IMG/VR virus record: IMGVR_UViG_3300031760_000004
Coordinates: 28,294 to 92,293 of that record
DNA: 64,000 nt
Strand: one strand, 5' to 3'
From: a virus
Lineage: Duplodnaviria > Heunggongvirae > Uroviricota > Caudoviricetes
The position numbers were made by a program, and so were the translations under genes. This document shows, piece after piece, positions 15,454-55,216 of the stretch. Every line of letters begins with the position of its first letter. Within the stretch, counting starts at the first letter, position 1. The notes under the pieces were generated by a model that did not search any database, was not told the origin of the DNA, and saw only the letters and a program-made list of their open reading frames with translations.

Positions 15454-15459
15454 GTTACC

Positions 15460-31668: not shown

Positions 31669-31724
31669 CAACAGGCTGTCCTACCGGCCGTACGGGGAAA
31701 CCAACAACAAGGAGCAAGACAACA

Positions 31725-32585
31725 ATGAAGAAGTACACCAAGTCCGCGGCGTTCGCGCTCGCGATTGCAACCGCCGCCATCCTCTCGGGATGCGGACAGA
31801 TCGAGTCCGGCGAGGCCGGATTCTTCACCAACTGGGGCGAGGTCACCAGCAAGCAGCCGCTTGAGGAGGGGCTCCACTTCTTCCTCTCCCCCGGCAAGGA
31901 CCTCGTGGTCTACAACGTCCGCAACCAGGTAGTCACGGTAAAGACGCCTGTGTTCACAAAGGATGTGCAGGCCATGGACGTCGACATGACGGTCACCTAC
32001 AGCCTCCAGAAGGAAAAGGTCATCGACCTGCATGTCAAGACCGGGCAGAACTACAAGGACATCCTTGTGGTGCCGTCGATTCTCGGCGCGACGAAGAACG
32101 CCCTGGGAAAGATGGAGGCCGGGGACATCGTGGCCAACCGGGAGAAGGCGACCGAAGCCATCACCCAGGAAATCTCCAAGCAGCTGGAGCCTCACGGCAT
32201 CAACATCGTGCTGGTAAACCTGACCAACATCGACTATTCCGACGCGTTCGAGAAGGCGGTGGAGGAGAAGCAGGTCGCTCTGCAGCAGAGCCAGAAGGAG
32301 AAGAACGAGACCGCTCGTCTCCGCGAGGTTGCCGAGCAGGAAGTTGTCAAAGCCGAAGCGGACGCCAAGGCAAAAGTGCTACAATCGGAAGCCGAGGCAA
32401 AGGCCATCCTCGTGAAGGCCGAAGCCGAAGCCAAGTCGATCGAGGTGCGCAACAAGGCGCTTGCGTCGAGCCACGCCCTCATCGAGTACGAAACTGTCAA
32501 GAAATGGAACGGCAAACTTCCGGACCAGCTTCTCGGAAGTGCTCCGATTCCGTTTCTGAACCTTGAAAAAGGTTCCGAACGGTAG
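31725..32585 (+). CDS. SPFH/Band-7 (prohibitin/HflK-like) lipoprotein
   Basis: Signal peptide plus lipobox AILSGC. SPFH-like core and a C-terminal Ala/Glu/Lys coiled-coil (AEQEVVKAEADAKAKVLQSEAEAKAILVKAEAEAKS). Confidence 0.6.
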   Translation: MKKYTKSAAFALAIATAAILSGCGQIESGEAGFFTNWGEVTSKQPLEEGLHFFLSPGKDLVVYNVRNQVVTVKTPVFTKDVQAMDVDMTVTYSLQKEKVIDLHVKTGQNYKDILVVPSILGATKNALGKMEAGDIVANREKATEAITQEISKQLEPHGINIVLVNLTNIDYSDAFEKAVEEKQVALQQSQKEKNETARLREVAEQEVVKAEADAKAKVLQSEAEAKAILVKAEAEAKSIEVRNKALASSHALIEYETVKKWNGKLPDQLLGSAPIPFLNLEKGSER

Positions 32586-32843
32586 ATGTCGCGTCCATTT
32601 CGGACGCGTGAATTGAAACAAAAGGAGAAGGAGACCAAATAATGCTGGCACTTTTGTGGCTCGTGGTGGTATGGGGGCTTGTGATGGCCACCATCCACTA
32701 CTTCCGTTCCTCCCGCAAGGGCGGGAGCGACAACAAGTAGCAACGCGTTACCCCTCTGCCACCGTCTCGGGGAATGCCGGCCAGTGAGATGGCGTCGTAC
32801 ATGCGGGGAGCGACCCGCACAATCTTTTTACAGGAGTACAACT

Positions 32844-33701
32844 ATGAACACCGACTACAAGGAACTGGCCATGTATCTGGCCAACAGAATGTATAAGTGG
32901 TTTGAAAAGGAAGCCGGATACAAGGACAAGAAGGATTACAAGGCCGTCATCGGCATCTCCGGCGGCAAGGACTCCGCGGTTGCCGCCGCAATCGCCTGCG
33001 AGGCCATCGGCAAGGAGAACGTGTACGGAGTCTTGATGCCGAACGGCGAGCAGGCCGACATCGAAGACTCAAAGAAGGTGTGCAGGTTCCTGGACATCAA
33101 CTGGGGCGTGTGCAAGATTGACGGGCCATACGTCGCGATGCTCGCCGCACTGAACGTCTCGGACGCCGACATCAGAGACAGAGAGAAGTGGTGGAACCCC
33201 GACAAGTTCGAAAGCGACACGAGAGTCACGACAAACCTCCCGGCCCGTCTCCGGATGTGCGCGCTGTACTCGATCGCCGCCAGAATCAACGGCCGCGTAA
33301 TCGGCACCGGGAACTTCTCGGAGGCTATCGCCGGGTACACCACGCTGTGGGGCGACTCGGCCTGCGACTACAATCCGCTGGCCAGCCTGTACGCCGACGA
33401 GGTCGTGGAGGTGGGGCGTGCGCTGGGCGACCTGCCTGAGGAAGTCTTGGCCAAGCCTCCGTCGGACGGAATGTCCGGAAAGACCGACGAGGACAACCTC
33501 GGCTTCACCTATGCGGAGCTCAAGGCCGTGATGCACAGGACTGGAACCGAGGTACCGCCTAAGTACGACAAGGTGATGAAGCGGGCGACTGACTCCTCGT
33601 TCAAGCGCAGGCTTCTAATAGGGATACCGCATCCGAGCGTGGAGCGCCACCTTGACGGCTCGATCGACATGGTGCGCACGATGGACGCCTGGAATAAGTA
33701 A
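32844..33701 (+). CDS. nadE: NH3-dependent NAD+ synthetase
   Basis: PP-loop GISGGKDS and typical NadE downstream motifs. Internal Met (ribosome-binding site CAGGAGTACAACTATG) of ORF 32784..33701. Confidence 0.75.
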   Translation: MNTDYKELAMYLANRMYKWFEKEAGYKDKKDYKAVIGISGGKDSAVAAAIACEAIGKENVYGVLMPNGEQADIEDSKKVCRFLDINWGVCKIDGPYVAMLAALNVSDADIRDREKWWNPDKFESDTRVTTNLPARLRMCALYSIAARINGRVIGTGNFSEAIAGYTTLWGDSACDYNPLASLYADEVVEVGRALGDLPEEVLAKPPSDGMSGKTDEDNLGFTYAELKAVMHRTGTEVPPKYDKVMKRATDSSFKRRLLIGIPHPSVERHLDGSIDMVRTMDAWNK

Positions 33702-33749: not shown

Positions 33750-35315
33750 ATGAAAGACAACTCTAACGCGGTGAAGGTGACGCTGCGCGACGGGTTCCTG
33801 GAGGTCGAGGGCGAATGCCCCGGCCTCAGGGAGAAGTTGAGGTATTTCCGGAAGGAGATAAAGCTGGTCAACTACCAGCGGATGGTCGAGAAGCACTTCG
33901 AAGACCTGTTCTCAGTCCCGGAAGACCGTCCAGACATAACCGTCACCATGCCCGGGTTCGCGCACCGCGTGCTCGAGCACTGCCGCAAGAAGCGCATACC
34001 GTTTCAGTTCAGGGACGCCCGCACGCCGATGCCGAAGCCAAACCTCGACAAAGCGTTCGCCGGCCTCAGGGACTACCAGATACGCCTTGCCGGGCGCATG
34101 ATCATGTCCGGAGGAGGCATACTTGAGGCCGCCACCGGCGCCGGAAAGACCGCGATAGCCGCGGCCATAATCCGGGCCTTTGACAAAAAGAGCCTCATCG
34201 ACCGCGGGACTCCCACGTGCGTGTTCGCCTGCCCCGACCGGGACATCAACCGCAAGAACTGGCAGGAGTTCCAGAGGTGGCTTCCGGACCGCGAAATCGG
34301 GCTGATCATGTCCGGGTCGGCCAACGTGCCGTCGGATGACGTGGTGTGCTGCACCATCGACAGCCTGGAGCACCTCGACCCGGATGACGTAGGCGTGCTC
34401 ATCGTGGACGAGATGCACGCATCTGCCTCGTCGTCGCGGTCGGAGAAGATAGCCGAGTTTAGCAAGGCCATGAAGTGGGGCGTGTCCGCCACGGCCACCG
34501 GAAGGTTCGACGGCGCCGACATCGTAGCCGAGGGGCTGTACGGCCCCATCGTGGCCGAGTTCACATACCAGGACGGTGTCAAGTCAGGGGCGCTGGTTCC
34601 GATAACCGTCCTCTGGATGGACGCCCCGCAGCCGGTGTGCGGCCTGACAACCTACGCGAAGTTCAAGCAGCGCGAGGCCAAGATCCGCCACGGGTCCCTG
34701 GCCAACGAGGACTTCGCGCAGCTGGTCGCCGACATTCTGAACTGCACCCCCGACGACAGGCAGGTTCTGTGCATGCTCCAGTTCATCGAGCAGATGAGCC
34801 TCATACACAGGAAGTGTGTCAAGACGGGGTACGTCCATGCCGAGACCAGCCCGGACAAGCTCGTAAGGTATCCGGACCTGGAGGCCATAAAGACCAGGGA
34901 GCGCAAGGAGATATACGACATGTTCCATGACAGAAAGATCATGTCGATAATCTCCACGCACTGCTGGAAGCAGGGCGTCGACTTCCCGGAGCTCAACGTG
35001 GTGGTGAACGCGGGCGGAGGCGGTTCCGACATCGTGGCCAAGCAGGTGCCCGGACGGGCGTCCAGAAAGGCCGACGGCAAGGACCACGCCTACATAGTCG
35101 ATTTCTGGCACAAATGGGACAGGGAGGATCCGGTCACCGAGTCCGGGAAGCCGGGCCCTCTGCTGTCGAACGACTTCTCACGCCGAAGGGCGTACAAGGA
35201 TCTGGGGTTTGAACAAGTGCAATGTCCTACGATAACTCAAATACCGTTCATAGACCGGGAACTGGCGGCGAAGACGACTTCCGCGATGACGCTGGGGCGA
35301 AATCTGCTTCTGTAG
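33750..35315 (+). CDS. Superfamily-2 DEAD/DEAH-box DNA helicase (UvsW-like)
   Basis: Motif I ATGAGKT, motif II DEMH. C-terminal helicase domain. Confidence 0.7.
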   Translation: MKDNSNAVKVTLRDGFLEVEGECPGLREKLRYFRKEIKLVNYQRMVEKHFEDLFSVPEDRPDITVTMPGFAHRVLEHCRKKRIPFQFRDARTPMPKPNLDKAFAGLRDYQIRLAGRMIMSGGGILEAATGAGKTAIAAAIIRAFDKKSLIDRGTPTCVFACPDRDINRKNWQEFQRWLPDREIGLIMSGSANVPSDDVVCCTIDSLEHLDPDDVGVLIVDEMHASASSSRSEKIAEFSKAMKWGVSATATGRFDGADIVAEGLYGPIVAEFTYQDGVKSGALVPITVLWMDAPQPVCGLTTYAKFKQREAKIRHGSLANEDFAQLVADILNCTPDDRQVLCMLQFIEQMSLIHRKCVKTGYVHAETSPDKLVRYPDLEAIKTRERKEIYDMFHDRKIMSIISTHCWKQGVDFPELNVVVNAGGGGSDIVAKQVPGRASRKADGKDHAYIVDFWHKWDREDPVTESGKPGPLLSNDFSRRRAYKDLGFEQVQCPTITQIPFIDRELAAKTTSAMTLGRNLLL

Positions 35316-35896
35316 TCGCGTCCGGAGCCGAGGCCGCCTGGGACGCGTACTTCGATGAGGCCGCCGCCAGGTACCATGTGATACCGCCGTCGAACGCATA
35401 CTCCTCGCACGAGTCGTGGCCGCACTTCCTGCAGGTCGCCCTGCTGTGCGCGTCCAAGGGCTGGAACCCCGACGACTACGTCAGAAAGGCGATCGACTTC
35501 GCCGGTAAGTACGGCCGGCTGTTCCCGGCAGACCTTCCGACCGCCAGGTTCATACGGGCGTACGCGGCGAGGATGGACTCGGAGGGCTGCGACGCGGCCA
35601 GACGCGCCGAGAATGAGTACAAGCGGTGCGTCGAGCTGCTGATACAGCGCGAGATGGACGGCGGGGATGAAAAGCCGCTGCTCATGTCGCCCGCGACGTC
35701 GTTCCCGGCGTGGTTCCGCGTGGTGTACCCTGAGAGACTGGACCTGGACATACTCGACACCTGGGGCGACACGGCGAAGCGCGAGCTCTCGTCCACGCCC
35801 GGGCTCATACAGCTGGTGTCAAGGATGTTCCCGGACAAATGGGAGCGTCTCAGAAAGGCGCTCTGGCTGTACGAAAGGGAAGGAGGAGCCCGATGA
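35222..35896 (+). CDS. Hypothetical protein (overlaps the helicase 3' end; start uncertain)
   Basis: 224 aa ORF in an alternative frame. Confidence 0.4.
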   Translation: MSYDNSNTVHRPGTGGEDDFRDDAGAKSASVVASGAEAAWDAYFDEAAARYHVIPPSNAYSSHESWPHFLQVALLCASKGWNPDDYVRKAIDFAGKYGRLFPADLPTARFIRAYAARMDSEGCDAARRAENEYKRCVELLIQREMDGGDEKPLLMSPATSFPAWFRVVYPERLDLDILDTWGDTAKRELSSTPGLIQLVSRMFPDKWERLRKALWLYEREGGAR

Positions 35897-37395
35897 TCTG
35901 CGACGTCAACATGCAGACGAGACTGCTGTGCGCGCTGGCCTCGGATCCCGAGTTCCTGCGCCAGAACGTGAACAAGCTCAGGCTGTCGGACTTCACGTCC
36001 GCGGCGGTGAGGCTTGTGTTCGAGACGATGAGGGCCCACTACGCCAAGTACCAGGCCCATCCCACCTCCAGGGTGTTCCCCGACGAGGTGCTGAACGCCA
36101 TGAAGGGCATAGGCCCCGACGGCCAGGAGTCCATAGTCACCGACGTTCCGGAAACCTCGCTGAGGTCGGTCGCCGCCTGCCTCGGGAAAGTCGTGTCCGC
36201 CCTGTCCCACCAGACGGCGGAGGACACCCCGTACTGGAAGGATAGGCTCAAGGAGTACCTCTACACGGTGAGGCTGTCGGCGATGCCGGGGCAGGACATG
36301 ACAGCCACGGAGCAGATCGCCGCGGCCGCCAAGATCAAGGAGGACGTGGAGTCCATCACCGGCGGCGAGAAGAAGGGGCTGGCCAAGTCCGCAAGGACCA
36401 GGGTCGTCAAGAAGAAGACGATGGTCCCTAAGAGGTTCGGCACCGGGGTGTGGCCCATAGACATCCGCATGCGCATGGGAATGGAGCTCGGCGAGGCCGG
36501 GTGCGTTCTGGCGGGATCGGGCGTGGGCAAGACCAACATGCTCATCAACTTCGCGGTCAACGCCGCGTTGCGCGGGCAGAGGGCGCTGTTCCTGACCCTT
36601 GAGGTCTCGGACGAGATAATCCTGCGCCGCCTGCACGCGATGATGGGCAACTTCAGGATGTCGTCCATGGACAAGCCGGAGGAGGACTGGGACAGGCAGG
36701 AGCTCGCCCGGTACGACTACATGATGTCCCCAAGGTTCCCGAACGCCGACTACGTGACCATCAACTACGAGTACGTGTCCAAGATGCCCACGGTCGACGA
36801 CCTCGACAGGGAGATAGGGAACTGGCGCGAGGACCTCAGGAAGGACGGGGTGTCCGACGAGGACGCGCCGCTCGTGTGCGTCGACTACATCCGGCAGATC
36901 GACCCTGGGAATCTATCCACAAAGAACGACAACACGAACACCAAGTACGGCGCCATAATGCAGGGGCTGAAACGCCTGGCGATGAAGCACCACTGCATAA
37001 TCTGGACCGCGCAGCAGGTGACGCGAATCGCGAACCGCAAGGAGCACATCCACAAGGACGACATCGCAGATTCCATCGCGATCGTCAACCATTGCGACGT
37101 GATCCTGGGGTTCGTGCCGGTCGGCGGGATGGACGCGCAGCAGTCTCCGACAACCGAGGAGACGGAGGACGACACGGCCGACAACCACTCCGACAAGGAG
37201 AGGCTGATGAACGTCGACTTTGTCAAGCTGAGGAACTCGGGCGAGACCGGTTCGTTCTGCACGGTGTTCCAGGGCCGCTCGCTGCGGCTGTGGACAAGCG
37301 AGCAGTACGCCAGAGTCGTCGAGAAGATGGCCATGCAGGTGAACACGGTGGAGGACTACGACAGGTTCTTCGCGAACATGCGACCGAAGGCCTGA
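35893..37395 (+). CDS. DnaB/gp4-family hexameric replicative helicase
   Basis: Walker A GSGVGKTNMLINFAVNAAL. DnaB-like N-terminal domain. Internal Met of ORF 35839..37395 with ATGA overlap. Confidence 0.7.
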   Translation: MICDVNMQTRLLCALASDPEFLRQNVNKLRLSDFTSAAVRLVFETMRAHYAKYQAHPTSRVFPDEVLNAMKGIGPDGQESIVTDVPETSLRSVAACLGKVVSALSHQTAEDTPYWKDRLKEYLYTVRLSAMPGQDMTATEQIAAAAKIKEDVESITGGEKKGLAKSARTRVVKKKTMVPKRFGTGVWPIDIRMRMGMELGEAGCVLAGSGVGKTNMLINFAVNAALRGQRALFLTLEVSDEIILRRLHAMMGNFRMSSMDKPEEDWDRQELARYDYMMSPRFPNADYVTINYEYVSKMPTVDDLDREIGNWREDLRKDGVSDEDAPLVCVDYIRQIDPGNLSTKNDNTNTKYGAIMQGLKRLAMKHHCIIWTAQQVTRIANRKEHIHKDDIADSIAIVNHCDVILGFVPVGGMDAQQSPTTEETEDDTADNHSDKERLMNVDFVKLRNSGETGSFCTVFQGRSLRLWTSEQYARVVEKMAMQVNTVEDYDRFFANMRPKA

Positions 37396-37406
37396 CAGGA
37401 GCAGAC

Positions 37407-38396
37407 ATGACCGAGAGACAGCTGAGAAAGGCGCTGTCCTCGAAGTTCGGCGGGCTGACGGAGTCAAGCGGCGGAAACGGCGTGGAGCTCCTTGTCGACT
37501 GCCCGTGGTGCGGCCGGCACAAGCTGTCGGTCAACCCATCAAAGGGAGTGTGGCAGTGCTGGCATTGCCACGAAAGCGGAACGGTCTCCAAGCTGCTCGG
37601 CCAACCTGTGAAGGTGGAGGTCGAGCAGCGGAGGCCGAAGCCGCGTCCCCGAGGGTACGAGCCGCCCGGCGAGCTGATACCGCTGGCCGACCTGCCGTCC
37701 GAACACGAGGCGTCGCTGTACGTAAGGAACAGGGGTTTCGACCCCAAGTACCTATCCGACACGTTCGGAATCACATACTGCCGTCATGGCAGGAAGTATG
37801 CCGACGGGCTGTTCGACGCCAACGGAACCATAGTCATACCGGTGTCCGAGAACGGCGTCGACATCGCGTGGCAGGCCCGGCTCCTCTACGACCCGGACAA
37901 GGTGCGGGAGGGCGAGGAGGCCGCGTACGGCTGGAAGTGTGAGGATGGCAAGTACAAGAAACCGCCCAAGTACTTCACATCGCCAGGCTTTCGCAAGGGC
38001 GAGCACTTCTTCAACTTCGACCAAGCCGCCAAGTGCGGTTTCGTCGTGGTCACCGAGGGCGCCTTCGACGCCATGCGCGTCGGCAGGTGCGCGGTTGCCG
38101 CGTTCGGAAAGGGGCTCACCGACACCCAGGTGCAGATACTTCGCGACACCTGGAAGCTCGTGGTGCTCCTTCTGGACCCGGACGCCGAGGAAGACCAGCG
38201 AAGGCTTTTTGAGCGCATCGAGGGGCGCGGGTTCATGGGGCGCAACTCCACCGGGGTGCGCTGCGTTCCGGTGAGACTGGCCGGATACAAGGACGCCGGA
38301 GAGGCGCCCGAATCGGAAGTGCGGAGACAGATCGTCCAGTCAGCCGCCGCCGAGGGGGTGGACCTATCGGCATATTCAAGGACGAATCCGTTTTAG
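37407..38396 (+). CDS. DNA primase (zinc-ribbon plus TOPRIM)
   Basis: CPWCGRHKLSVNP...WQCWHCHESG zinc finger. TOPRIM-like VVVTEGAFDAMRV...LLLDPDAEED. Internal Met of ORF 36876..38396. Confidence 0.7.
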   Translation: MTERQLRKALSSKFGGLTESSGGNGVELLVDCPWCGRHKLSVNPSKGVWQCWHCHESGTVSKLLGQPVKVEVEQRRPKPRPRGYEPPGELIPLADLPSEHEASLYVRNRGFDPKYLSDTFGITYCRHGRKYADGLFDANGTIVIPVSENGVDIAWQARLLYDPDKVREGEEAAYGWKCEDGKYKKPPKYFTSPGFRKGEHFFNFDQAAKCGFVVVTEGAFDAMRVGRCAVAAFGKGLTDTQVQILRDTWKLVVLLLDPDAEEDQRRLFERIEGRGFMGRNSTGVRCVPVRLAGYKDAGEAPESEVRRQIVQSAAAEGVDLSAYSRTNPF

Positions 38397-39823: not shown

Positions 39824-40450
39824 ATGGATGGCAAGGAACTAGACGTGCAGGTAGTAAAAAACGCATACGAGCGGCGCATGCACGCGCTGGCGCAGCTGAT
39901 GCTGTCCCTGAACGGCGGCGGCGTGCAGGAGCTGTACGACGCGTCCGGGTCGGACAGCCAGGTGTTCGCGAACGAGGTCACGCGTCTGGCGTCCGACTTC
40001 GCCGACGAGTGGGCCAAGGTGCCCGGCGACGTCCACGACGAACTCGGGGAGGACTACGTCGAGGAGATCGACCTCATGGCGGACTGGATGAGGGCCCACG
40101 CCGCGGACATAATGGAGAACTCGCTCGAGTACGGCCTGTACAGGGCCGGCAGGCCCAAGTTCTCGATGGTGGTGGAGGATCTCTCATCCGACATGACCGG
40201 CTCCAACTGTGATGTGACGACGTCCGAGAAGAAGGAGCTGATCGCCCAGGACGCCAGCCGCGCATGGGAGGAGATGCTCAACCAGGCCTTTATCAGCAAC
40301 GCGATCGGCGCGATCAGGTCCGGAAGCGGGTCATCCGAAATGATCTGGAGGGACTCGAAGGTGTTCGAGGCGGTGGAGCGCGACAAGCGCGGTATCGTGT
40401 TCGGCCACCGCCGGTACAGGCTTGAAATGGAGAAGGAGGAGCTGCGATGA
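39824..40450 (+). CDS. Hypothetical protein
   Basis: Internal Met (MDGKELDVQVV...) of ORF 39749..40450. Confidence 0.5.
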   Translation: MDGKELDVQVVKNAYERRMHALAQLMLSLNGGGVQELYDASGSDSQVFANEVTRLASDFADEWAKVPGDVHDELGEDYVEEIDLMADWMRAHAADIMENSLEYGLYRAGRPKFSMVVEDLSSDMTGSNCDVTTSEKKELIAQDASRAWEEMLNQAFISNAIGAIRSGSGSSEMIWRDSKVFEAVERDKRGIVFGHRRYRLEMEKEELR

Positions 40451-41487
40451 GAGAGTTTGAGTCAACATCCCAGATATTCCCGCTGGTGGATGTCGGCACG
40501 TACTGGGGACGGTACGAATTCGAACGAATGTGGTACGACTACATCGAGCAGGACAGGGAGGAGGGGTACATCGTATGCGACGACTACGACTTCGACGAGT
40601 TTAAGAAGGCGCTGTGCGAGAGCGTGCAGCGTGTCTTCGACAAGGAGAAGCCGCTTGAGAAATACGGTGTAAAGGCGTTCCATGCGGACAAGATAGGGTC
40701 TCCACGCGAATACAACTTCATGGACGACTGGCTCGAGTTCCGCGTGGAGGTTGACGACGACTGGTTCGACAAGTCGGCCGAGATCCTCAGAAAGCCCGAA
40801 AACAAGGCGCTGGTGGACAAGTACATACATGACCACTGGCACTCGTGTGACGGGTTCACCTCGTTCATGCCATACGACCTGGACGAGCTGCTTGAGAACG
40901 CGTTCGGCCTCAGAGACCATCCGGAGGACTGGCAGTTCTCACGCGAGGAGGACCGCACGGTCGGCGGAATCCTGTGCCTGCTCGTGCACGTGGACGGCAG
41001 GATGGAGAATGAAGACGGCGACGAGGAATGCGACAAGAGCGGCAGTTTCGACCCGTTCAAGCTGCTCCGCGACGAGCTGTCCGATCTGGTGTACGAGGAC
41101 TTTACCGGGTGCCACACCCATTCAGACTTCATGACGACCGTTGACCGCGAAGAAGTGGACAAGGTGTTCAAGAAGCACTATCTGAAGTTCGACTCCGTGA
41201 TGGACGGCATCGCCGGCGACTACAAGAAGTACCGAGAGGCCATGGCCGGAAACGAGTCGTCGCTGCGGAAGGCGGAGAGATGGTTCGAGGCCGTGAGCCG
41301 CGAGATCGACGACTACAAGCGTAGGCAGGATGAGATAATCTCCGCATACTTCGACCGGTTCGCGCCGAAGGATGAGGTAAAGAAGCTCATTAAGAAGGAC
41401 GAAATCGTTGAGGAGCTGCACGACTTGCGCAAGGAGTTCGACAAGGACCGCGAGTTCAAGTGGCAGGGCTTCTGGAAGGAGAAGTGA
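40447..41487 (+). CDS. Hypothetical acidic protein
   Basis: 346 aa. ATGA overlap. Confidence 0.5.
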   Translation: MREFESTSQIFPLVDVGTYWGRYEFERMWYDYIEQDREEGYIVCDDYDFDEFKKALCESVQRVFDKEKPLEKYGVKAFHADKIGSPREYNFMDDWLEFRVEVDDDWFDKSAEILRKPENKALVDKYIHDHWHSCDGFTSFMPYDLDELLENAFGLRDHPEDWQFSREEDRTVGGILCLLVHVDGRMENEDGDEECDKSGSFDPFKLLRDELSDLVYEDFTGCHTHSDFMTTVDREEVDKVFKKHYLKFDSVMDGIAGDYKKYREAMAGNESSLRKAERWFEAVSREIDDYKRRQDEIISAYFDRFAPKDEVKKLIKKDEIVEELHDLRKEFDKDREFKWQGFWKEK

Positions 41488-41488: not shown

Positions 41489-44278
41489 ATGGGAACATAC
41501 GACGGAGAGCACGCGAGGACAAAGGCTAAGCCGAAGAAACTGGAGGAAGGCCCCGGATGGTTCCGTGAGCCATTTTCCGAGATCGACGGCCGCAAGTGCC
41601 TCAACGGAACCGGGCCCGTGCCGGCGAAGGTGCTCTTCGTCGACAAGGTCCCGGACGAGAGGGAGGTCTGGACCCGCAAGCCGTACAGCGGCCGCACGGG
41701 CCAGTTCCTCTTCGAGTGCCTGAAGAAGGCCGGGTGGTCAAAGGAGCAGATAAAGGCCTGCAGGTTCACATACGCGACGCACCACGCCCCGAAGAAGTAC
41801 ACCGCGGCCGAGGTCAACTGGGGCAAGCGCATGTTCCGCGAGGAGCTCTACGAGACCGGGGCGGAAATCGTGGTGTGCTTCGGGGCCGAGCCGCTCAAGC
41901 AGGTGGTAGGACCCACATACAGGTGGGACGACGTCCACGGGGCGTTCATCAAGCCGGATTCGATCGAGGACTGCTGGTTTACGATGTTCCCGACCTTCAA
42001 TCTCGAGCAGGTGCTGTTCGGGCCGAAATGGGACAAGTACTTCCTGCGCGACCTGGAGTGGATCCGGAGGCGCATGGAGGGTGACGAAATAAAGCCTCCG
42101 AGATGCGACCACGCGGTCATAGCCGACCCAAGGGCCATAGACATGCTCCGGGAAACGCTGGAGCGATATCCCGGCAAGACGGTGGTGGCGCTCGACTGCG
42201 AATGGAACGGCCGCAACTGGATGGACCCGGAGAGGTATCTCCGGACCGTCCAGATCGGGTTCCGCAAGGGCCGGGTCATGACCGTCGAGCTGAACTACGA
42301 GGGTGGCAGGCCGGTCATGGAACCTGGCGTGGAGACAGCCGTGATGGACGCCCTGAAGCGGTTTCTGGAGTCGCCGAAGATATGCATCTGCGGCCACAAC
42401 GTGATCGCCGACGGCGAGTGGCTGCTGAGCTACGGAATCGACATCCGAGAGCACGTGGTGTACGACACCATGCTGGCCGAGCACATAATCGACCAGAACG
42501 GGCCGTTCGGCCTGGAGGCGCTCTCGATGAAGTACACCGACTACGGCCGGTACTCGACGGACGTCGAGGTGTGGGTCAGGCGCCACCAGAACGCGAAGCT
42601 GCCGGACACCAGCGCCTACGGCTACGGGTATGTCCCGAGGGACATGCTGCTCAAGTATGGGTACATAGACGTGGATGTGCTCCACTACATCATGGAGAAG
42701 CAGATACCGATCCTCCGTGAAAGGGGCTGCCTGAAGCCCCGTGGGCTTCACAAGGAGTATCCGAGTTTGTTCCACACCGTGATGAAGGTCCAGAAGGTCA
42801 CGTACGACCTGGAGCTCAACGGGCTCCCGGTGGACATGGCCCAGCTGGACATGCTGACGGAAAAGTACCAGAAGGCAAGGTCGGAGACGCTGTCCAAGGT
42901 CATGGCCATGGCGCGTGCGGCAGGGTTCGAGGATTTCAACCCCAGGTCGGCCATACACCTCAGGAAGATGCTGTTCGGGGTCCTGGGCCTTACGCCCATA
43001 AAGACCACGGACGGAGACGACTGGGGCGACGTGGCCGGCGAGATGGGAATGGACTCCGAGGAGGAGGTTTCTGCCTCGACCGACAAGACCACCCTGCAGA
43101 TTCTGGAAGGCCAGCACCCGTTCGTGGACGCCCTGCTGGACTTCCGCCGCGTGGACCAGGTCTGCAAGACATGGCTCACCAAGGAGAAGGACGGCGAGCC
43201 GGCGGGGTTGTACGCCCTGCTCTGGCCCGACTGCACGCTGAAGCCGCACTACAGCCCGCTCACCGCAACCGGACGCATGAGGGTGTCGGCCCCGAACAGC
43301 CAGAACTTCCCGAAGGCGGCGGAGTCGTACTTGACCAAGATATTCGGCGAGGGAAATGAACCGCCGATGATACGGACGATCGTGAAGCCGCGCAACGAGT
43401 GGATTCAGATCGAGGCGGACTTCTGCGCCGCCGAACTCAACATCCTCGGGAACCTGTCGCAGGACCCGAACATGCTCAGGGCGCTCAACACGCCTGGGCT
43501 GGACCTGCACGACAAGACCGCGGTGGATTCATTCGGGCTCGTGATGTACGACGAGAACGGCAGGGAGGTCACGGAGGACGACCTGGTCAGGCTGGCGGCC
43601 GAGATGGGCGAGGAGTCCGACGACTACCAGCACTTCATGAAGACGCTGACCTATGTGGACAAGCAGGGGAAGCGCATGACAAGGTCGGAGATGAAGAGCT
43701 CCATACGAGTCATAGCGAAGAGCCTGAACTTCGGCATTGCCTATGGCCGCGGGGCGCGTGCCATCTCGCTCGCCGTCAAGGCGCAGACGGGATCCAAGGA
43801 ACCGCTGGACGCCATCATCCCCGGTGTCGCCGCATCTGTGGAGGGCTGGAAGACAAAGGCCTATCCAGTGGCATGGAAATGGCTTGTGGACCACCAGCAG
43901 ATGATCTACGACCCCGGATACGTGGAGAACCCGTGGGGGCGCCGCAAGTATGTGTACCTGAGGAACGGCGAGAAGAGCCCGAGCCTGGAAAGGGAGGCCG
44001 GAAATTTCCCAATACAATCGTGCTGTGCGGACTCCGTCCAGATCGCGATGGGAAAGCTGCTGGACTTCAAGGAGACTGCCGGGTTCCCGTTCCGAATCCA
44101 GAACCAAATCCACGACGCCCTGATGATCGAAACGCCTCGAGAGCATATCGAGGAGGCGAAAGAGGTCCTCAGGAAGTCGATGTCGGAGATAGACATCCCG
44201 ATCCCCGGCACCAGCAAGACATTCCGTCTCGGCGTCGACATAGACGTATACGAGCGTTGGGGTGTGAAGATGAAGTAA
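41489..44278 (+). CDS. Family-A DNA polymerase (3'-5' exonuclease plus polymerase) with an N-terminal uracil-DNA-glycosylase family-4-like domain
   Basis: N-terminus GTGPVPAKVLFVDKVPDEREV...PYSGRTGQFLFECLKKAG parallels UDG family 4 motif A (GeGPxxAxxmxvGExPG...PFvGxaGxLL) but with DKVPD instead of GExPG. Exo I VVALDCEWNG. Polymerase motif B RSEMKSSIRVIAKSLNFGIAYG. Motif C IQNQIHDALMIE. Confidence 0.8.
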   Translation: MGTYDGEHARTKAKPKKLEEGPGWFREPFSEIDGRKCLNGTGPVPAKVLFVDKVPDEREVWTRKPYSGRTGQFLFECLKKAGWSKEQIKACRFTYATHHAPKKYTAAEVNWGKRMFREELYETGAEIVVCFGAEPLKQVVGPTYRWDDVHGAFIKPDSIEDCWFTMFPTFNLEQVLFGPKWDKYFLRDLEWIRRRMEGDEIKPPRCDHAVIADPRAIDMLRETLERYPGKTVVALDCEWNGRNWMDPERYLRTVQIGFRKGRVMTVELNYEGGRPVMEPGVETAVMDALKRFLESPKICICGHNVIADGEWLLSYGIDIREHVVYDTMLAEHIIDQNGPFGLEALSMKYTDYGRYSTDVEVWVRRHQNAKLPDTSAYGYGYVPRDMLLKYGYIDVDVLHYIMEKQIPILRERGCLKPRGLHKEYPSLFHTVMKVQKVTYDLELNGLPVDMAQLDMLTEKYQKARSETLSKVMAMARAAGFEDFNPRSAIHLRKMLFGVLGLTPIKTTDGDDWGDVAGEMGMDSEEEVSASTDKTTLQILEGQHPFVDALLDFRRVDQVCKTWLTKEKDGEPAGLYALLWPDCTLKPHYSPLTATGRMRVSAPNSQNFPKAAESYLTKIFGEGNEPPMIRTIVKPRNEWIQIEADFCAAELNILGNLSQDPNMLRALNTPGLDLHDKTAVDSFGLVMYDENGREVTEDDLVRLAAEMGEESDDYQHFMKTLTYVDKQGKRMTRSEMKSSIRVIAKSLNFGIAYGRGARAISLAVKAQTGSKEPLDAIIPGVAASVEGWKTKAYPVAWKWLVDHQQMIYDPGYVENPWGRRKYVYLRNGEKSPSLEREAGNFPIQSCCADSVQIAMGKLLDFKETAGFPFRIQNQIHDALMIETPREHIEEAKEVLRKSMSEIDIPIPGTSKTFRLGVDIDVYERWGVKMK

Positions 44279-45109: not shown

Positions 45110-46516
45110 ATGGCATTCAACTTCGACAATGCCGTCGGTTCCGAGCAGACTCAGAACCGCATGTTCAAGCAGGGCGTCAAGTACGCCTTCTTCAAGGCCG
45201 ACGACAAGCGGCCGATCACGTTCCGGCTCCTGCCGGCGTTCCCCGAGCACGACGGCCAGCTCACGGACGAGGACAAGGCCGGGTCATACGTGCCAGCAGT
45301 CACGCTCGTTGGCGGAAGGCCGGTCATCGCGGACTGGATCTTCGCTCTGAAGGTCAGCCGCTCCTACCAGAAGGGGGCCAACCCAATCGTCTCCCGCCGC
45401 ACCATCATCGAGCTCAACTCGGACGGCACGGTGGTGGAACAGGAGGACCCCCTCTCCCAGGTGCACGCCTACTGCCGCCAGTACGACAAGGACTGGGGAT
45501 ACATCGTCAAGGACGTCGGCGAGTGGGGGTCCAAGGACCGCGTGTCGGCCAAGCTCCCGTACTGCCGCCCCGAGTACGTCATGAACGTGCTCACCCTCGA
45601 CGACGACAGACCGGGCGTCAAGATCGGCGTGATCTCGTCCGGCATGGCCATCGCCTGCCTCATCTCCCAGAGGGAGGGGCACGAGGGTCTGGCCCTCCGC
45701 CAGCGCGACGAGGACATCCCCCAGGAGCGCATCGACGCCAACCCGTCCATCGTGTTCCAGTACGGCGACATCACCGACCCGAACTCGGCCCCGGTGTTCA
45801 AGTACGCAAAGGCTCTCGCGGAGGACAACTCCAAGAAGGTGTACAACATCTCGCTGTCCGCCATTTTGGACCCGTCCACCGGCCGCAAGCGCGTCGAGCG
45901 CATGGGCCTCACCACGGACCACATGGCGCTCCGGCAGGACCTGGCGCACCCCGAGACGTACGTCAACATCCCGACGCCGGAGGAGCAGGTCGCGCAGATC
46001 GTCGAGCGGTGCTGCGGGCGCAGCCCCAACGGCATACACGAGTACGGCATGCTCAAGGCGGCCCTCCCGGACTACGCGAGCCTCATCCCCGAGCCACCGA
46101 TGGCGCCGGGAGCGGTCAACCAGGTCCAGGGCTTCACGCCTCAGACGCAGGCACAATCCGCGCCGGCTGAGGAGCCCGTCGTCCAGCAGGCGACGATGGA
46201 TCCGGAGGCCCAGGTTGTCAAGACGACTACCACGGCTCCGGCCCATCAGTCCGTACACACGACGCATACGTTCAAGCCGGCGTCCACCGTGACGGCCCAG
46301 CGCCAGCCAGCTGCAACGGCACAGCCCCAGCAGGCGGCCCCGGTGTTCCGTCCGGCGTCGTCCGTGGCGAACGTAGTCCGCAAGGCCGCAGCTGCGGCCC
46401 CGGCTGAACCCGAGGCATCGGTGGCGGTCGCCAGCGGCGAAGGCCCCGTCGAGGGCGTTCCCGGCGAGGAGTTTTCCGAGGACGACTGGATGGCCAAGTA
46501 CAGCGGAGGTAAGTAA
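45110..46516 (+). CDS. Putative single-stranded DNA-binding protein (T4 gp32-like) with a long low-complexity linker and acidic C-terminal tail
   Basis: N-terminal KRPITFRLLPAFPEHDGQ resembles gp32 AVIRFLPSKNDEQ. Ala/Pro/Gln/Thr-rich linker. C-terminus EEFSEDDWMAKYSGGK. Located directly upstream of the UvsX/RecA-like gene. Confidence 0.5.
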   Translation: MAFNFDNAVGSEQTQNRMFKQGVKYAFFKADDKRPITFRLLPAFPEHDGQLTDEDKAGSYVPAVTLVGGRPVIADWIFALKVSRSYQKGANPIVSRRTIIELNSDGTVVEQEDPLSQVHAYCRQYDKDWGYIVKDVGEWGSKDRVSAKLPYCRPEYVMNVLTLDDDRPGVKIGVISSGMAIACLISQREGHEGLALRQRDEDIPQERIDANPSIVFQYGDITDPNSAPVFKYAKALAEDNSKKVYNISLSAILDPSTGRKRVERMGLTTDHMALRQDLAHPETYVNIPTPEEQVAQIVERCCGRSPNGIHEYGMLKAALPDYASLIPEPPMAPGAVNQVQGFTPQTQAQSAPAEEPVVQQATMDPEAQVVKTTTTAPAHQSVHTTHTFKPASTVTAQRQPAATAQPQQAAPVFRPASSVANVVRKAAAAAPAEPEASVAVASGEGPVEGVPGEEFSEDDWMAKYSGGK

Positions 46517-47862
46517 TGCCGAAGGCCAAGCTGGAGGGTCCCCGCAAGGGGACCATGCAGTCGCTCATGGGCCGGATGTACGCCGACTTCGGCGTGCAGA
46601 TGACCACGGGCGAGGAGTTCTCCAAGACCTGGCGCTACCTGACGTTCACCGACCCGAAGACCGGCCTGCCCTCCATAGCCCATGAGTGGATTGTGGGGGC
46701 GGCCGGATTCCGGGCCGGTACCGTCAACCAGCTGCGGGGGCTCGCCGCTACCGGCAAGTCCTCCATCTGCATGCTGGAGTACGCCAGCGCCATGCGCAAC
46801 GGCGGGGCGTTCTGCGCGCACCTCGAGACAGAGGGCGGCGGAATGGCCAACTCCAGAATCGCCGAGTTCGGGATGGACCCGCGACAGCTGGCCGTTCCGG
46901 ACTCCGTGGACTCGCTGGAGAATGCCGTCAAGTTCGTGGACACGTTCCGCTGCATCATCCGCGGCGGCGACGGTGGCTCCATCAACGAGCTCGGGCGCAA
47001 GTCCGCCACGAAGTTCAAGACCGAGGACGCCGAGGACCCGAAGTGCGAGAAGCCGATTCTCATCGGCATCGACTCGCTGTCGGACCTTGGAAAGGACGAC
47101 GACGTCAACACCGACGTGGCCGACATGACCAGGGCCAAGCAGCCTGGGTGGTTCCCGCGGCAGATCAAGGCGTGGTTCAGGGACAGGAAGAAAAAGTACG
47201 AAAAACAGCTCGTCACCCTCTTCCTGACCTCCCAGGAGACCACAAAGATCGCCACGGGCGCGTCCTCGTTCCTGCCGCCGGAGAAGACCTCCGTGGCCGG
47301 CGACGCAATCAAGTTCGAGGCAACCGTCGCCCTGGACCTGTCTATCAAGGACTGGAAGGACAAGTCTGGCGTCAAGATCGGACGCGAGGTGATGCTCAAG
47401 TGCTTCAAGAGCAAGCTGGGCTGCAACCTCGGCCGAAAGGTGTCGTTCTTCCTGACTGACCACGACGGGTTCGACTTCATCCACGCCGACGCCGAGTTCC
47501 TGCTCGGAAAGGACTCGCCGTTCAAGGACGGAGGGGCCTTCCCCGGGACACGCCTGTGCTACCGGCACTCGCAGGGCATCACCTGCCGGCCGCTGGGAGA
47601 CAGGGCGTTCAAGACCGAGGAGGAGTTCATCCGGGCGTTCTACGCGAACAAGGAGGTTCTGGACAGGTGCCGCGACTGGATGTTCACATACGGTTACGGA
47701 CTGCCTCACGAGACGAGGTACAAGGACAGCTTCGACGCCGACGGCAAGTGGGTCGGCGGAGAGGCGTCCGCGAAGCCTCCGACGAGCGAACCGGACGCCG
47801 ACGAGTTGATCGACCCTGAGCTTGACGGCTCGGACACCGATGAACCCGTTGACGAGATCTAA
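46516..47862 (+). CDS. RecA/UvsX-family recombinase
   Basis: Walker A GLAATGKSSICM. Walker B-like ILIGIDSLSDL. RecA-fold core. Acidic C-terminal tail. Confidence 0.75.
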   Translation: MPKAKLEGPRKGTMQSLMGRMYADFGVQMTTGEEFSKTWRYLTFTDPKTGLPSIAHEWIVGAAGFRAGTVNQLRGLAATGKSSICMLEYASAMRNGGAFCAHLETEGGGMANSRIAEFGMDPRQLAVPDSVDSLENAVKFVDTFRCIIRGGDGGSINELGRKSATKFKTEDAEDPKCEKPILIGIDSLSDLGKDDDVNTDVADMTRAKQPGWFPRQIKAWFRDRKKKYEKQLVTLFLTSQETTKIATGASSFLPPEKTSVAGDAIKFEATVALDLSIKDWKDKSGVKIGREVMLKCFKSKLGCNLGRKVSFFLTDHDGFDFIHADAEFLLGKDSPFKDGGAFPGTRLCYRHSQGITCRPLGDRAFKTEEEFIRAFYANKEVLDRCRDWMFTYGYGLPHETRYKDSFDADGKWVGGEASAKPPTSEPDADELIDPELDGSDTDEPVDEI

Positions 47863-49052: not shown

Positions 49053-49466
49053 ATGACGATTCCAGAGGTTGTAAAGGCGATGCGCCACTCCGTTCGGCCG
49101 GTAAGCTACGGTGGCGACATAGTGAGCGCCACGATGCCCGTTCCGGCTGACATCGAACTGTGGGCCCGCCATGTTGAAGAGGCGTACGGCGAGCTGGTGT
49201 CGGAACTGGCCAAGTTAAGTCGCGGCATGGACGGCATGCATCCGAATGACTGCGACGCCTGCGAACCGTCAGACGAGTATCTCAAGGAATACGCCGAGTC
49301 CGTTGACGCCAAGTACCCTCCGGTAGAGGGTGACGACGCCTGGACTGAGGACGCCAAGTGGGACATGGACTGCTGCGAGCAGTGCGGCAACCGAGACTGC
49401 GCCGCGGTCAAGTTCCGCGAGTTCGTAAATAGGCTAAAGGAGGAGAAGGCAAGATGCGAAAAGTGA
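49053..49466 (+). CDS. Hypothetical Cys-containing protein
   Basis: Internal Met (MTIPEVVKAMRH...) of ORF 48909..49466. CDACEP...CCEQCGNRDC. Confidence 0.45.
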   Translation: MTIPEVVKAMRHSVRPVSYGGDIVSATMPVPADIELWARHVEEAYGELVSELAKLSRGMDGMHPNDCDACEPSDEYLKEYAESVDAKYPPVEGDDAWTEDAKWDMDCCEQCGNRDCAAVKFREFVNRLKEEKARCEK

Positions 49467-50569
49467 GGATCATGCACATTGGCGACCTTCATCTGGGCAC
49501 CCGGCAGTACGGGATGGCCCGGAGGGAGGAGGACTTCTACGACGCTCTGAACCGCGTCAAGAAGCTGGCATTGGAAAACGATGTCGACATCGTCATCATA
49601 TCGGGCGACGTGTTCGACAGCCCCAAGCCTCCGGCCCGCGCCGTTTTCGAGCTGTCGGAGTTCGTGAGGGCGTTGTCCGGATGCGGGATAAATGTCTGCG
49701 GCATAGAGGGAAACCACGACCTCACCCAGGACAACTACTGGCTGAGCGTGTGCGGGATAAGGCCCCTCGACGGACTGCTAGAAGGCGTCGGGTATTCCAA
49801 GGGCATCGCGTACGTCACCGGGTTCAACTTCTGCCGGAGCGAGGAGCTCCTCGACAAGCTGGACAAGCTGGCTGACTTCTGCGGTGACACGTCACGGTAT
49901 CCGGTTATAGTGCTCCACTGCGGAGTGGCGGAGATGGGCGCCGGTTTCAACCCGGACCTGTCGGTGCACCAGCTCGTTCCGGCGCTGAAGAAGGTCGGGT
50001 GCAAATACTGCGCACTTGGACACATCCACATCCCGATGGAGCAGAAGGTGGACGACATCTGGTTCGTGCAGCCGGGAAGCCTCGAGATGAAGAGCGTCGA
50101 CGAGCCGCAGGACAAGTCGGTCGAGATCTTCGAGCTGGACAAGGACACCGGTGAGGTGCTGGGTCTGACGAAGTTCCCGTACCAGACGCGCAGGATCGTG
50201 TTCGAGAACGTCAACACGGACGAGGACGTGGACCGCATTCTGGCCACGTCTCCCGACTCAATCAGCGACAACCTGACGGTGTGCTACGTGTCAAACGCCA
50301 TTCAAAACGGAGTATCCCGGCTGTCCGACTTCGGAAAGGACAACGGGCTCATGTTCAGAGTGGTGCCGGTAGGAGATCCGGAGACGCGAAGCAAGACCGA
50401 CGACTTCGACAGGCACAGCAGCATGAACCTGCTCCAGATGGCCGTCGAGACGTTCTTCGAGAAGGACTCCGACCAGTACAGGATGGTGATGGACATTCTG
50501 TCCACAGGCAACCCCAGGATGGTGGTTGAGAAGTTCATGAACGACAACAACAATGAGGAGGAGAAGTAA
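49454..50569 (+). CDS. sbcD: SbcD/Mre11-like nuclease (T4 gp47-like)
   Basis: Calcineurin-like phosphoesterase motifs IMHIGDLHLG, GDVFD, GNHD, and LGHIH. Confidence 0.8.
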   Translation: MRKVRIMHIGDLHLGTRQYGMARREEDFYDALNRVKKLALENDVDIVIISGDVFDSPKPPARAVFELSEFVRALSGCGINVCGIEGNHDLTQDNYWLSVCGIRPLDGLLEGVGYSKGIAYVTGFNFCRSEELLDKLDKLADFCGDTSRYPVIVLHCGVAEMGAGFNPDLSVHQLVPALKKVGCKYCALGHIHIPMEQKVDDIWFVQPGSLEMKSVDEPQDKSVEIFELDKDTGEVLGLTKFPYQTRRIVFENVNTDEDVDRILATSPDSISDNLTVCYVSNAIQNGVSRLSDFGKDNGLMFRVVPVGDPETRSKTDDFDRHSSMNLLQMAVETFFEKDSDQYRMVMDILSTGNPRMVVEKFMNDNNNEEEK

Positions 50570-52782: not shown

Positions 52783-53251
52783 GGAGCGTGGTCACAAGAC
52801 ACTGTACGTAGCCGTTGACGCCCACGGCACGATAATCAGGCCGTCCAAGAAGACCGTAATGCAGATGGCCGACGGGGATGACAAGCCCTCAGAGGTGGTA
52901 TGCAGGTGCGGATGCACGCCGGAGTTCGAGTTCTACCCATACGCTCGCATAGCCCTTGCCAGTATGGCAGACGCCGGCGTGAGGCTGATCCTTTGGACCA
53001 GCACTCTGGATTCATACGGGCTTCTTCAGCGGTTAAGGCGGGAAGGAATCGGAATAACCGACTTCAACGACAATCCCGACTTCAGGCTTACACCGTACGC
53101 GGACTTCTCAAAGAAGTTTTACTTCGATGTCCTCTTGGACGACAAGGCCGGGTTCGACCCTATGCACGACTGGGAGAAGATTTTCGAAATCGACTTCGAT
53201 AAGGAGTTAAAGCAGGAGGGTTCTGCAAATGAGCGAGAACGAGAACGATAA
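52736..53251 (+). CDS. Hypothetical protein (possibly HAD-like phosphatase fold)
   Basis: Internal Met (MKDIRKLFRD...) of ORF 52619..53251. LYVAVDAHGTII is loosely similar to HAD motif I. Uncertain. Confidence 0.4.
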   Translation: MKDIRKLFRDAISRLKERGHKTLYVAVDAHGTIIRPSKKTVMQMADGDDKPSEVVCRCGCTPEFEFYPYARIALASMADAGVRLILWTSTLDSYGLLQRLRREGIGITDFNDNPDFRLTPYADFSKKFYFDVLLDDKAGFDPMHDWEKIFEIDFDKELKQEGSANERERER

Positions 53252-54143
53252 TGAATGCACGTACTGCGACATCATGTTCGCGAACGCCGGCAGAACCAGC
53301 AAGAGCAAGCTGCCGGGGCTGATAAGGGAGCTGCTTCCACACCGCGGCGGCGACCAGATGAGATTCGTACTGGACGTCGGCTGCGCGGACGGCCGATTCA
53401 CGCGATGTTTGAAGAACAGCCTTCCTGACGACGTGGGCGTGATCGGCCTTGAGCCGAACAGGCAAAGATACCGTAAGGCTCAGAAGCTGATGGACGGTGA
53501 CGGACGGCTGTCGTTCATTAACAATCAGTTCGACAATTCGTACGCTGATGGCAGGGGTGACTTCGACTGCATCCTGTTCTCGTCCTCGATGCACGAGATA
53601 TCGTCGGCATGCCCAGATAAGATTGACCGGTACACCACGATTCCGATAAGGGTGGCTCTCAAGAAGGCGGCAGGCCTCCTGCGCAAGGACGGCGTAGTCG
53701 TGGTGCGCGACTTTGTCAAGGTCTGTAACTGGGAATATGGCTCCGTGGAGGTCGTATTCACGACCGAGGAAATTGAAAACCAATTCCTGAGGTACGTCAG
53801 GGAATGCCCGTTCATAGACTATGGCGGTAGCTTTGTGTTCAGCATGAGCAAGGTCTATCAAAAGCAGGCCATATTCAAGATAAGGGCTGACCTGTTCCTC
53901 GAGTTCATGCTGTGCAGGACATGGGGGGAGAACGCGTGGAAACGAGAGGTGAAGGAGCGCAAGCTCATCCTCAGCAAGGAAATGTGGAAGACCGCGTTCG
54001 AGGAAGCCGGGCTTACCGATGTAACCGCGGAGACACACACCGAGGAATACCCGGATTTCTTCAAGAACGCGGCGTTTGTAGTGAGCCCGGCCGGGTGGTC
54101 GTGGCCCGATCTCTCAATCACCATAACAGGTAGGAAGAAGTGA
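53229..54143 (+). CDS. Class I SAM-dependent methyltransferase
   Basis: Motif I VLDVGCADGRFT. Acidic post-I D. Slightly AT-richer codon composition than its neighbours. Confidence 0.6.
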   Translation: MSENENDNECTYCDIMFANAGRTSKSKLPGLIRELLPHRGGDQMRFVLDVGCADGRFTRCLKNSLPDDVGVIGLEPNRQRYRKAQKLMDGDGRLSFINNQFDNSYADGRGDFDCILFSSSMHEISSACPDKIDRYTTIPIRVALKKAAGLLRKDGVVVVRDFVKVCNWEYGSVEVVFTTEEIENQFLRYVRECPFIDYGGSFVFSMSKVYQKQAIFKIRADLFLEFMLCRTWGENAWKREVKERKLILSKEMWKTAFEEAGLTDVTAETHTEEYPDFFKNAAFVVSPAGWSWPDLSITITGRKK

Positions 54144-55205: not shown

Positions 55206-55216
55206 AATTCAGACCG

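Follow-up and report, generated by a model that had tools for sequence, protein, structure and literature searches.

The window analysed here is a 64,000-nucleotide stretch of the virus record IMGVR_UViG_3300031760_000004 (positions 28,294 to 92,293 of that record), and the gene under study encodes a 929-residue family-A DNA polymerase whose N-terminal domain resembles uracil-DNA glycosylase (UDG). Polymerases of this build have been named UDG-PolAs (Czernecki et al. 2023, PMC10201439). The gene begins with an ATG (41489-41491) that follows the TGA of the upstream open reading frame (ORF; 41485-41487) after a single base, and it ends with a stop codon at 44276-44278; the coordinates of its domains, motifs and neighbours are collected in Table 1. 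An identical protein (P0001) is encoded on a 190,763-bp metagenomic contig (ena:ERZ27256908:k141_4137673), of which the window corresponds to roughly 98-162 kb. The window belongs to a tailed phage, with a terminase gene present and tail-fibre and LysM genes just past one window end, and the ORF product is the replicative, proofreading family-A DNA polymerase of this ~190 kb uncultivated tailed phage.

Pfam scans find a UDG domain, a 3'-5' exonuclease and a PolA domain in that order within the one polypeptide. UDG (PF03167) matches residues 41-144 with 38.8 bits against a gathering score of 24.3 (E 1.3e-9), DNA_pol_A_exo1 (PF01612) matches residues 218-404 with 62.7 bits against 23.6, and DNA_pol_A (PF00476) matches from residue 460 with 152.9 bits against 34.3; PHROG_17, 'DNA polymerase', aligns to residues 46-928. 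When residues 1-234 were compared with the PDB using phmmer, the only significant matches were family-4 UDGs, namely 1l9g and 1vk2 of T. maritima (5e-5) and 1ui0 of T. thermophilus (2e-4). Three strings were confirmed in the protein: GTGPVPAKV, VDKVPDE opposite VGEGPGE, and KPYSGRTGQFL opposite RPFVGKAGQLL.

An AlphaFold2 (AF2) model of residues 1-215, built with 29 homologues, has a predicted local distance difference test score (pLDDT) of 92.5. In a Foldseek comparison of this model with the PDB the top folds are UdgX, T. thermophilus UDGA and the family-4 UDGs of T. maritima and S. tokodaii, with E values of 3e-12 to 1e-10 and template-modelling (TM) scores of 0.62-0.75 at ~20% identity (UdgX 6iod at 2.6e-12 and 1ui0 at 3.1e-12; 4zby and 1l9g were also matched). 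Family-5 UDG and TDG follow at ~1e-6, about five orders of magnitude weaker than the family-4 enzymes. The signal lies far above chance, and the model confirms a true UDG fold for the N-terminal domain. The database name 'Phage SPO1 DNA polymerase-related protein' is a long-standing label for family-4 UDGs.

The free-standing family-4 UDGs and UdgX (1ui0, 1l9g, 4zby, 6iod) are the closest structural matches to residues 25-200, but they have a GE(G/Q)PG motif A, an HP(A/S) motif B and a 4Fe-4S cluster, all of which the window protein lacks, as it does the additional KRRIH loop of UdgX. Residues were mapped onto T. thermophilus UDGA (1ui0). Motif A, G40-E41-G42-P43-G44 in the reference, reads D52-K53-V54-P55-D56, with Lys53 at the place of the catalytic Glu41. 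The stacking aromatic F54 is kept as Y66; the uracil-binding N80 is lost (Y95), and so is H155-P156 of motif B (N171-L172). Of the 4Fe-4S cluster ligands, the alignment shows neither the N-terminal CxxC nor a Cys at either of the two later positions. Scores against curated models fall well below their cut-offs, with 33.6 bits against 125.3 for the family-4 model TIGR00758, 29.5 against 250 for NF040953 and 41.5 against 189.95 for the UdgX model TIGR03914. The KRRIH insert was not found in the window protein, where the loop region reads THHAPKKYT, and a covalent mechanism like that of UdgX was ruled out by the missing loop together with a score so far under the cut-off.

Among close relatives the former pocket varies considerably: position 53 is K, R, G, H or Q, position 54 is V, C, A, M or S, and position 56 is D, T, S, E or N; at position 52, Q, A and G occur. 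The freedom of positions 53, 54 and 56 to vary fits relaxed selection on the pocket. Family-5 UDGs work without a motif A acid but use the His of motif B and an Asn, and family 2 relies on Asn residues; these elements are also gone from the window protein. Since the catalytic residues are replaced, the domain is predicted not to excise uracil, and judging from the alignments our confidence that it is not a uracil glycosylase is high.

An earlier note on this stretch, made from the letters alone, had proposed a UDG family-4-like fold joined to an exonuclease and PolA. Pfam, phmmer, AF2 and Foldseek bear this out, and the structure check it suggested for the N-terminal domain (AF2 on residues 1-215, then Foldseek) recovered the UDG fold. 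The alignments likewise contain the altered motif A that it described, DKVPD for GExPG, and the probable loss of catalysis that it deduced reaches further than motif A, as the His-Pro of motif B, the uracil-specific Asn and the four Fe-S cysteines have gone as well.

The remainder of the protein, which the same note had read as an exonuclease followed by PolA palm and fingers, is confirmed as such, with its motifs intact. The exonuclease has Exo I (D236/E238), Exo II (N304/D308) and Exo III (Y390/D394), and the polymerase has motif A (D644/E649), motif B (R740/K744/F748/Y752) and motif C (H875-D876-A877); in an alignment of 62 sequences (A1) the motif residues of both parts are invariant or near-invariant. 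HDA in place of HDE in motif C was considered as an oddity and ruled out, as N4 and PMBT14 also have HDA, Nachito has HDS, and the motif is invariant in the family. The fingers carry an insert of ~50 aa at about residues 685-735, and the alignment to Taq polymerase runs to ~30 residues from the C-terminus, leaving no room for an additional C-terminal domain.

The full-length AF2 model has a pLDDT of 91.5 and a predicted TM-score (pTM) of 0.88. Neither phmmer nor Foldseek returned a UDG-PolA structure from the PDB; the only matches to the full-length protein, confined to its exonuclease and polymerase, were Klenow (E 1.6e-29 in Foldseek), Taq and Pol theta. Superposed over its whole length, the model gives TMq values of 0.70-0.81 on viral PolA models of UDG-PolA length versus 0.56 on Klenow, values that are consistent with a conserved arrangement of the predicted domains.

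Homologues with the same three domains number ~100 in large protein collections, almost all of them metagenomic. At the DNA level nothing near-identical turned up, either when 50,697 phage records were searched with the gene by megablast or in exact 40-mer searches of contigs from IMG/VR and JGI metagenomes. The N-terminal domain as sole query retrieves mostly long UDG-PolAs together with some free-standing UDGs. In a neighbour-joining (NJ) tree built from the exonuclease and polymerase sequences, 100/100 bootstrap replicates set 82 metagenomic members apart as a family, with N4, Nachito, PMBT14, Serbin and bacterial Pol I outside it, and a 29-member clade that includes the window protein is recovered equally often. 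The window protein is placed by its sequence in a metagenomic family of ~130-210 kb phages, nearer to the SPO1-like phages than to N4. As regards the host, genome contigs scanned with the window protein yielded no relative, and those scanned with the alignment yielded only distant matches in metagenome-assembled genomes (≤27% identity) that are uninformative.

The catalytic set is distributed unevenly over the family. An acid at the Glu41 site is found in 3 of the 29 members of the window clade versus 39 of the 53 other members, and the motif B His in 2/29 versus 12/53; Tyr occupies the Asn80 site in 25/29 versus 9/53. The full set of acid, His, Pro and Asn is present in nine of the 53 and in none of the 29. 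Over the family as a whole the set decays in a graded manner, with a single loss at the root of the 29-member clade that was separate from the loss in N4. Such graded decay over ~80 related sequences offers a natural variant series for studying the function of the domain.

The UDG-like domain is the fastest-evolving of the three, with identities within the close clade of 55% (exonuclease 64%, polymerase 70%) and to distant relatives of 24% (45% and 42%). It is kept, without deletions, in essentially every full-length family member, and F25, P55, E59, T94, Y95, E119, G132, G151, Q174 and R187-D188-L189 are conserved in at least 90% of aligned clade members. This continued conservation argues that the polymerase retains the domain as an integral structural module.

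Two further observations concern the homologues themselves. Six of them (P0006, P0008, P0011, P0015, P0018 and P0020) are 1225-1250 aa in length, ~300 aa longer than the window protein, to which they are 64-69% identical; their best local alignment spans only ~65% of the query, and no Pfam domain is recorded for the extra part. This suggests an insertion within the polymerase, with an intein or homing element as the question to ask. Homologues P0002-P0007 are 81-88% identical to the window protein in the polymerase, 57-66% in the UDG-like domain and 62-71% in the exonuclease, so that their N-terminal half has either diverged much faster or been exchanged by recombination.

The polymerase gene lies in a replication module (Table 1) with a gene order common to relatives on contigs of 130-211 kb. 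A primase-like gene of this module was missed by simple longest-ORF calling because spurious ORFs overlap it in GC-rich DNA; it was located by tblastn with the ~316-338 aa genes that precede the polymerase in relatives, and is 64% identical to the gene of L003 and 42-47% to those of L010, L011 and L012. The L010 orthologue has weak Pfam matches to Toprim_2 and the DnaG zinc ribbon.

Table 1. Positions, in window coordinates, of the UDG-PolA gene, its parts and other genes of the window.
Feature	Positions	Strand	Basis or remark
Two GT2-family glycosyltransferases, 222 and 855 aa	548-3786	-	
Rad50-like	28595-30730		replication module
ResIII helicase	33750-35315		replication module
DnaB-like helicase	35839-37395		replication module
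Primase-like gene	about 37401-38396	+	directly after DnaB-like helicase; tblastn
Five ORFs of 95, 184, 112, 233 and 346 aa	38406-41487	+	between primase-like gene and polymerase
Ribosome-binding site AAGGAG	41476..41481	+	7 nt 5' of ATG, read from sequence
UDG-PolA gene, 929-aa family-A DNA polymerase with N-terminal UDG-like domain	41489..44278 including stop	+	
Residues 1-24, basic N-terminal tail, low-confidence prediction	41489..41560	+	pLDDT 32-57 in both AF2 models
Residues 25-200, predicted family-4-type UDG fold, catalytically degenerate	41561..42088	+	Pfam PF03167, AF2 (pLDDT above 90), Foldseek
UDG motif A remnant V51-D-K-V-P-D-E-R-E59	41639..41665	+	aligned to T. thermophilus V39-G-E-G-P-G-E-E-E
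Tyr95 at site of uracil-recognising Asn80 of family-4 UDG	41771..41773	+	alignment
UDG motif B remnant F167-P-T-F-N-L-E-Q-V-L176	41987..42016	+	aligned to FPMFHPAYLL
Residues 215-410, 3'-5' proofreading exonuclease, Exo I-III intact	42131..42718	+	Pfam PF01612 and alignment
Residues 411-929, PolA thumb, palm and fingers	42719..44275	+	Pfam PF00476, Taq alignment, AF2, Foldseek
Two small ORFs			between polymerase and 468-aa gene
Conserved 468-aa protein	45110-46516		3' of polymerase
UvsX/RecA-like	46516-47862		replication module
Mre11-like phosphoesterase	49454-50569		replication module
SAM-dependent methyltransferase	53229-54143		separate from C5 enzyme
C5 cytosine-specific DNA methyltransferase	61460-62701		

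The slot that separates the primase-like gene from the polymerase appears to be variable: it is occupied by a methyltransferase and two further ORFs in L010 and L011, and in L003 the two genes adjoin directly. For the window's ORFs of 184, 233 and 346 aa in this slot, Pfam and PHROG gave no match, and blastp found no counterpart among the compared neighbour genes of relatives. For these reasons the 346-aa ORF (40447-41487) was rejected as a conserved partner of the polymerase; the gene of ~320-340 aa that precedes the polymerase in relatives corresponds to the primase-like gene of the window, not to this ORF.

The earlier note had also linked the UDG-like domain to modified phage DNA, citing the glycosyltransferase and methyltransferase genes, a link that finds no support in the sequence inspected. 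Pfam scans of 61 window ORFs (most of those of at least 120 aa; a dozen or so shorter ones were left out) and of 10 kb on each side found no ThyA/ThyX, dUTPase, dCMP/dCTP deaminase or 5-hydroxymethyluracil (hmU) kinase, and so no gene of a deoxyuridine (dU) or hmU pathway in the 84 kb inspected. The two glycosyltransferases adjoin the tail-fibre and LysM genes, away from the replication module, and modification of glycans or of a surface fits them better than glycosylation of DNA; a TOD1/MUCI70-like glycosyltransferase lies just beyond the window end (L009 10660-11367). The C5 methyltransferase suggests phage DNA with ordinary cytosine that is methylated after replication. The UDG-PolA gene itself is no evidence for modified phage DNA.

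Elsewhere in the window, NAD+ salvage and synthesis genes are dispersed over four places (26073-27194, 32784-33701, 55133-56434 and 56471-57049), the set comprising a fusion of an NMN adenylyltransferase-like domain with Nudix, NadE, a nicotinate phosphoribosyltransferase and an isochorismatase/PncA-like nicotinamidase. Genes at 15346-16365, 16431-17180 and 31515-32585 encode an LpxR-like lipid A deacylase (E 5e-51), an adjoining caspase-like peptidase C14 protein and, farther away, an SPFH/Band 7 protein. The LpxR-like protein, as an outer-membrane lipid A deacylase, suggests a Gram-negative host.

The explanation that we favour, and consider probable on the comparisons above, is that the UDG-like domain serves the replicase as a non-catalytic module for template guiding and processivity, or for docking. 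The domain would be a built-in structural part of the replicase; by homology to the structures of SP15-like polymerases, it would lie on the path of the incoming single-stranded template, which it may guide or hold. It could in this way aid processivity or strand displacement, or offer a surface for docking, and would leave the bases untouched. What we infer here is threefold: that the domain is inactive, where it lies on the polymerase, and that it has a role in template guiding or processivity. Several points weigh against this explanation. The position of the UDG domain comes only from the pTM and the whole-length TM-scores. Glycosylases can use unconventional residues, as UDGb does without a motif A acid and MUG/TDG do with Asn. 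Tyr95 and Gln174 are conserved in at least 90% of the aligned degenerate-clade members, a hint that the domain has kept or gained some specific function and is more than a scaffold. Finally, the search for dU and hmU genes covered 84 kb of 190.8 kb, and genes for thymidine modification could lie in the other ~107 kb.

Archaeal family-B polymerases have a uracil-sensing pocket, and on that model the domain could be a non-catalytic base reader. It would flip uracil or a modified pyrimidine out of the template before the active site is reached, recognise it, and stall or modulate the polymerase, much as the earlier note had proposed. The retention of the UDG fold with high model confidence, the stacking aromatic kept as Tyr66 and the conserved Tyr95 and Gln174 would suit such a reader, and active UDG-PolAs do use the domain to read the template 5 nt ahead (bioRxiv 10.1101/2025.03.26.645540). 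However, Asn80 and the backbone loop of motif A, which make the enzymes specific for uracil, are replaced, and a bulky Tyr at the Asn80 site would more likely fill the pocket than read a base. The proposal of uracil or modified-base sensing is further weakened by positions 53, 54 and 56 of the former pocket, which show no conservation in close relatives, even between sequences that share 55% identity or more. No genes of a dU or hmU pathway were found in the 84 kb inspected, and the genome assembled as a 190 kb contig from ordinary metagenomic data, unlike those of the hypermodified phages YerA41 and RP13. We therefore regard a base reader as unlikely. It is less probable again that the domain is a glycosylase of changed mechanism or substrate, with Asp52, Asp56, Glu57 or Glu59 acting for the canonical Glu and His, and we give this very little credence. 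Other UDG families do manage without the family-4 set (GLAPG in UDGb, Asn in MUG/TDG), Glu59 is present in at least 90% of the degenerate clade and Asn171 stands at the His155 site; but here the acid or Asn of motif A, the His of motif B and the base-binding Asn are missing at once, Asp52 and Asp56 are not conserved in the clade, Glu59 also occurs in the canonical GEGPGEEE, where it is not catalytic, and the curated family models score far under their cut-offs.

Alternatively, the domain could be a folding relic with no DNA-related role, retained since its packing on the exonuclease and fingers is needed for the polymerase to fold. Its rapid evolution relative to the other two domains would agree with this, as would the repeated decay of the catalytic motifs, the full set surviving in only 9/53 sequences outside the degenerate clade. 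Its retention without deletions in essentially every full-length member speaks against a relic, as do conserved residues of surface type (R187-D188-L189, Q174, Y95) and the long persistence of such domains in N4-like and T5-like polymerases (PMC10201439; PMC3201878), and we consider this account improbable.

The neighbourhoods of some relatives raise a different thought. In P0055 and P0069, both with an intact-looking motif A, three extra genes lie between the primase-like gene and the polymerase (L010 7985-10004; L011 7991-10000): a gene for a SAM methyltransferase and a pair of small ORFs, of which one matches GT2 weakly. Within 10 kb downstream in the same relatives are a dNMP-kinase-like gene (L010 only) and an Ogg-HhH-like glycosylase/lyase gene (both), at L010 17923-18513 and 19524-20483 and at L011 21828-22367. 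A tblastn search found no match to these extra genes in the window with 20 kb of flanking sequence, nor in the close relative L003, and P0051, whose motif is partly degenerate, is also without them; the sample is far too small for an association between motif state and extra genes to be claimed. It is conceivable, albeit improbable, that the degenerate domain is not passive, and that Tyr95 and a new L-[D/E]-Q motif at the motif B site, both conserved over the clade, form a repurposed pocket or surface reading some other feature of the template, or else that the single loss of UDG chemistry in this clade marks a changed genome chemistry or repair strategy. If this were true, one could predict from the state of the UDG motifs whether a large uncultivated phage has a module for base excision or base modification.

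The explanation that we favour draws on earlier literature. Kazlauskas and Venclovas (2011, PMC3201878) discussed the hypothesis that the UDG-like domains of SPO1 and T5 are intrinsic processivity factors, by analogy with vaccinia D4. Czernecki et al. (PMC10201439) described the N4-like polymerases as having a family-4 UDG domain in which the catalytic residues are not conserved, possibly a processivity module, and reported that the UDG domain of the SPO1, SP-10 and SP-15 polymerases has catalytic residues. Missoury et al. (2025, bioRxiv 10.1101/2025.03.26.645540) determined cryo-EM structures of SP15-like enzymes whose UDG domain is active; it is positioned above the fingers and threads the 5' template strand ~5 nt in front of the active site.

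The best matches among sequenced phages are the SPO1-like Bacillus phages (SPO1 gp31, Nachito), PMBT14 (Pseudomonas) and Serbin (Serratia), at 22-25% identity, with alignments that extend from the UDG domain through the polymerase; tblastn to the SPO1-like phages covers residues 36-900 of the window protein, and blastp against Nachito gives E 2e-43 over 38-898. The SPO1-like phages have the same order of UDG, exonuclease and polymerase, and a similar gene order of polymerase, single-stranded DNA-binding protein and RecA-like gene. However, this group keeps the acid of motif A (QENPF, ADAPT, GDNPN) and the His-Pro of motif B (IHPNT, IHPET, FHPAM), and PMBT14 and Serbin keep the cluster cysteines, none of which the window protein has. 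SPO1, Nachito, PMBT14 and Serbin also carry homologues of dUMP hydroxymethylase/thymidylate synthase, a dCMP deaminase or a dUTPase beside the polymerase, whereas the window does not, and the hmU DNA of SPO1 does not apply to it.

The SP15-like polymerases (YerA41, phiLo), with an N-terminal UDG and PolA, provide the structural precedent for a domain on the path of the 5' template. They differ in being 1175-1306 aa long and in having two large inserts (Insert 1 and Insert 2) as well as a ~80-aa domain at the C-terminus, whereas the 929-aa window protein ends with the palm; their UDG is active (E53, P55 and H178 in phiLo), whereas that of the window protein lacks the catalytic residues; and their partners are Pol X and a ligase, in phages whose thymidine is hypermodified. 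In poxviruses, too, a UDG fold (vaccinia D4/mpox E4) is a structural part of the viral replicase, albeit one of family-1 type that is a separate subunit acting in trans, has a family-B polymerase as its partner and is catalytically active. The essential role of D4 in replication is independent of its glycosylase activity. The position of mpox E4 has been set against that of the phage UDG domain (bioRxiv 10.1101/2025.03.26.645540).

N4 gp39 (cluster #17) is of the same kind as the window protein, a family-A replicase with a UDG-derived domain in which the catalytic residues are replaced or deleted. It is nevertheless not of the same lineage: blastp aligns only the polymerase domain (E 1.4e-13), and N4 falls outside the window family in 100/100 NJ bootstraps. 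Its UDG domain is far more eroded than that of the window protein, and the losses are separate events. The UDG-PolA fusion, in active and inactive forms, is already published, and what is new here is a metagenomic lineage with an independent loss. For annotation, the product is best called a DNA polymerase with an inactive UDG-like domain, not a uracil-DNA glycosylase as in some homologue records. Phage family-A replicases have repeatedly kept the UDG fold while losing its chemistry, in the present case in a lineage apart from N4, and this repeated retention supports a structural role, in template handling or processivity, that would be independent of uracil excision.

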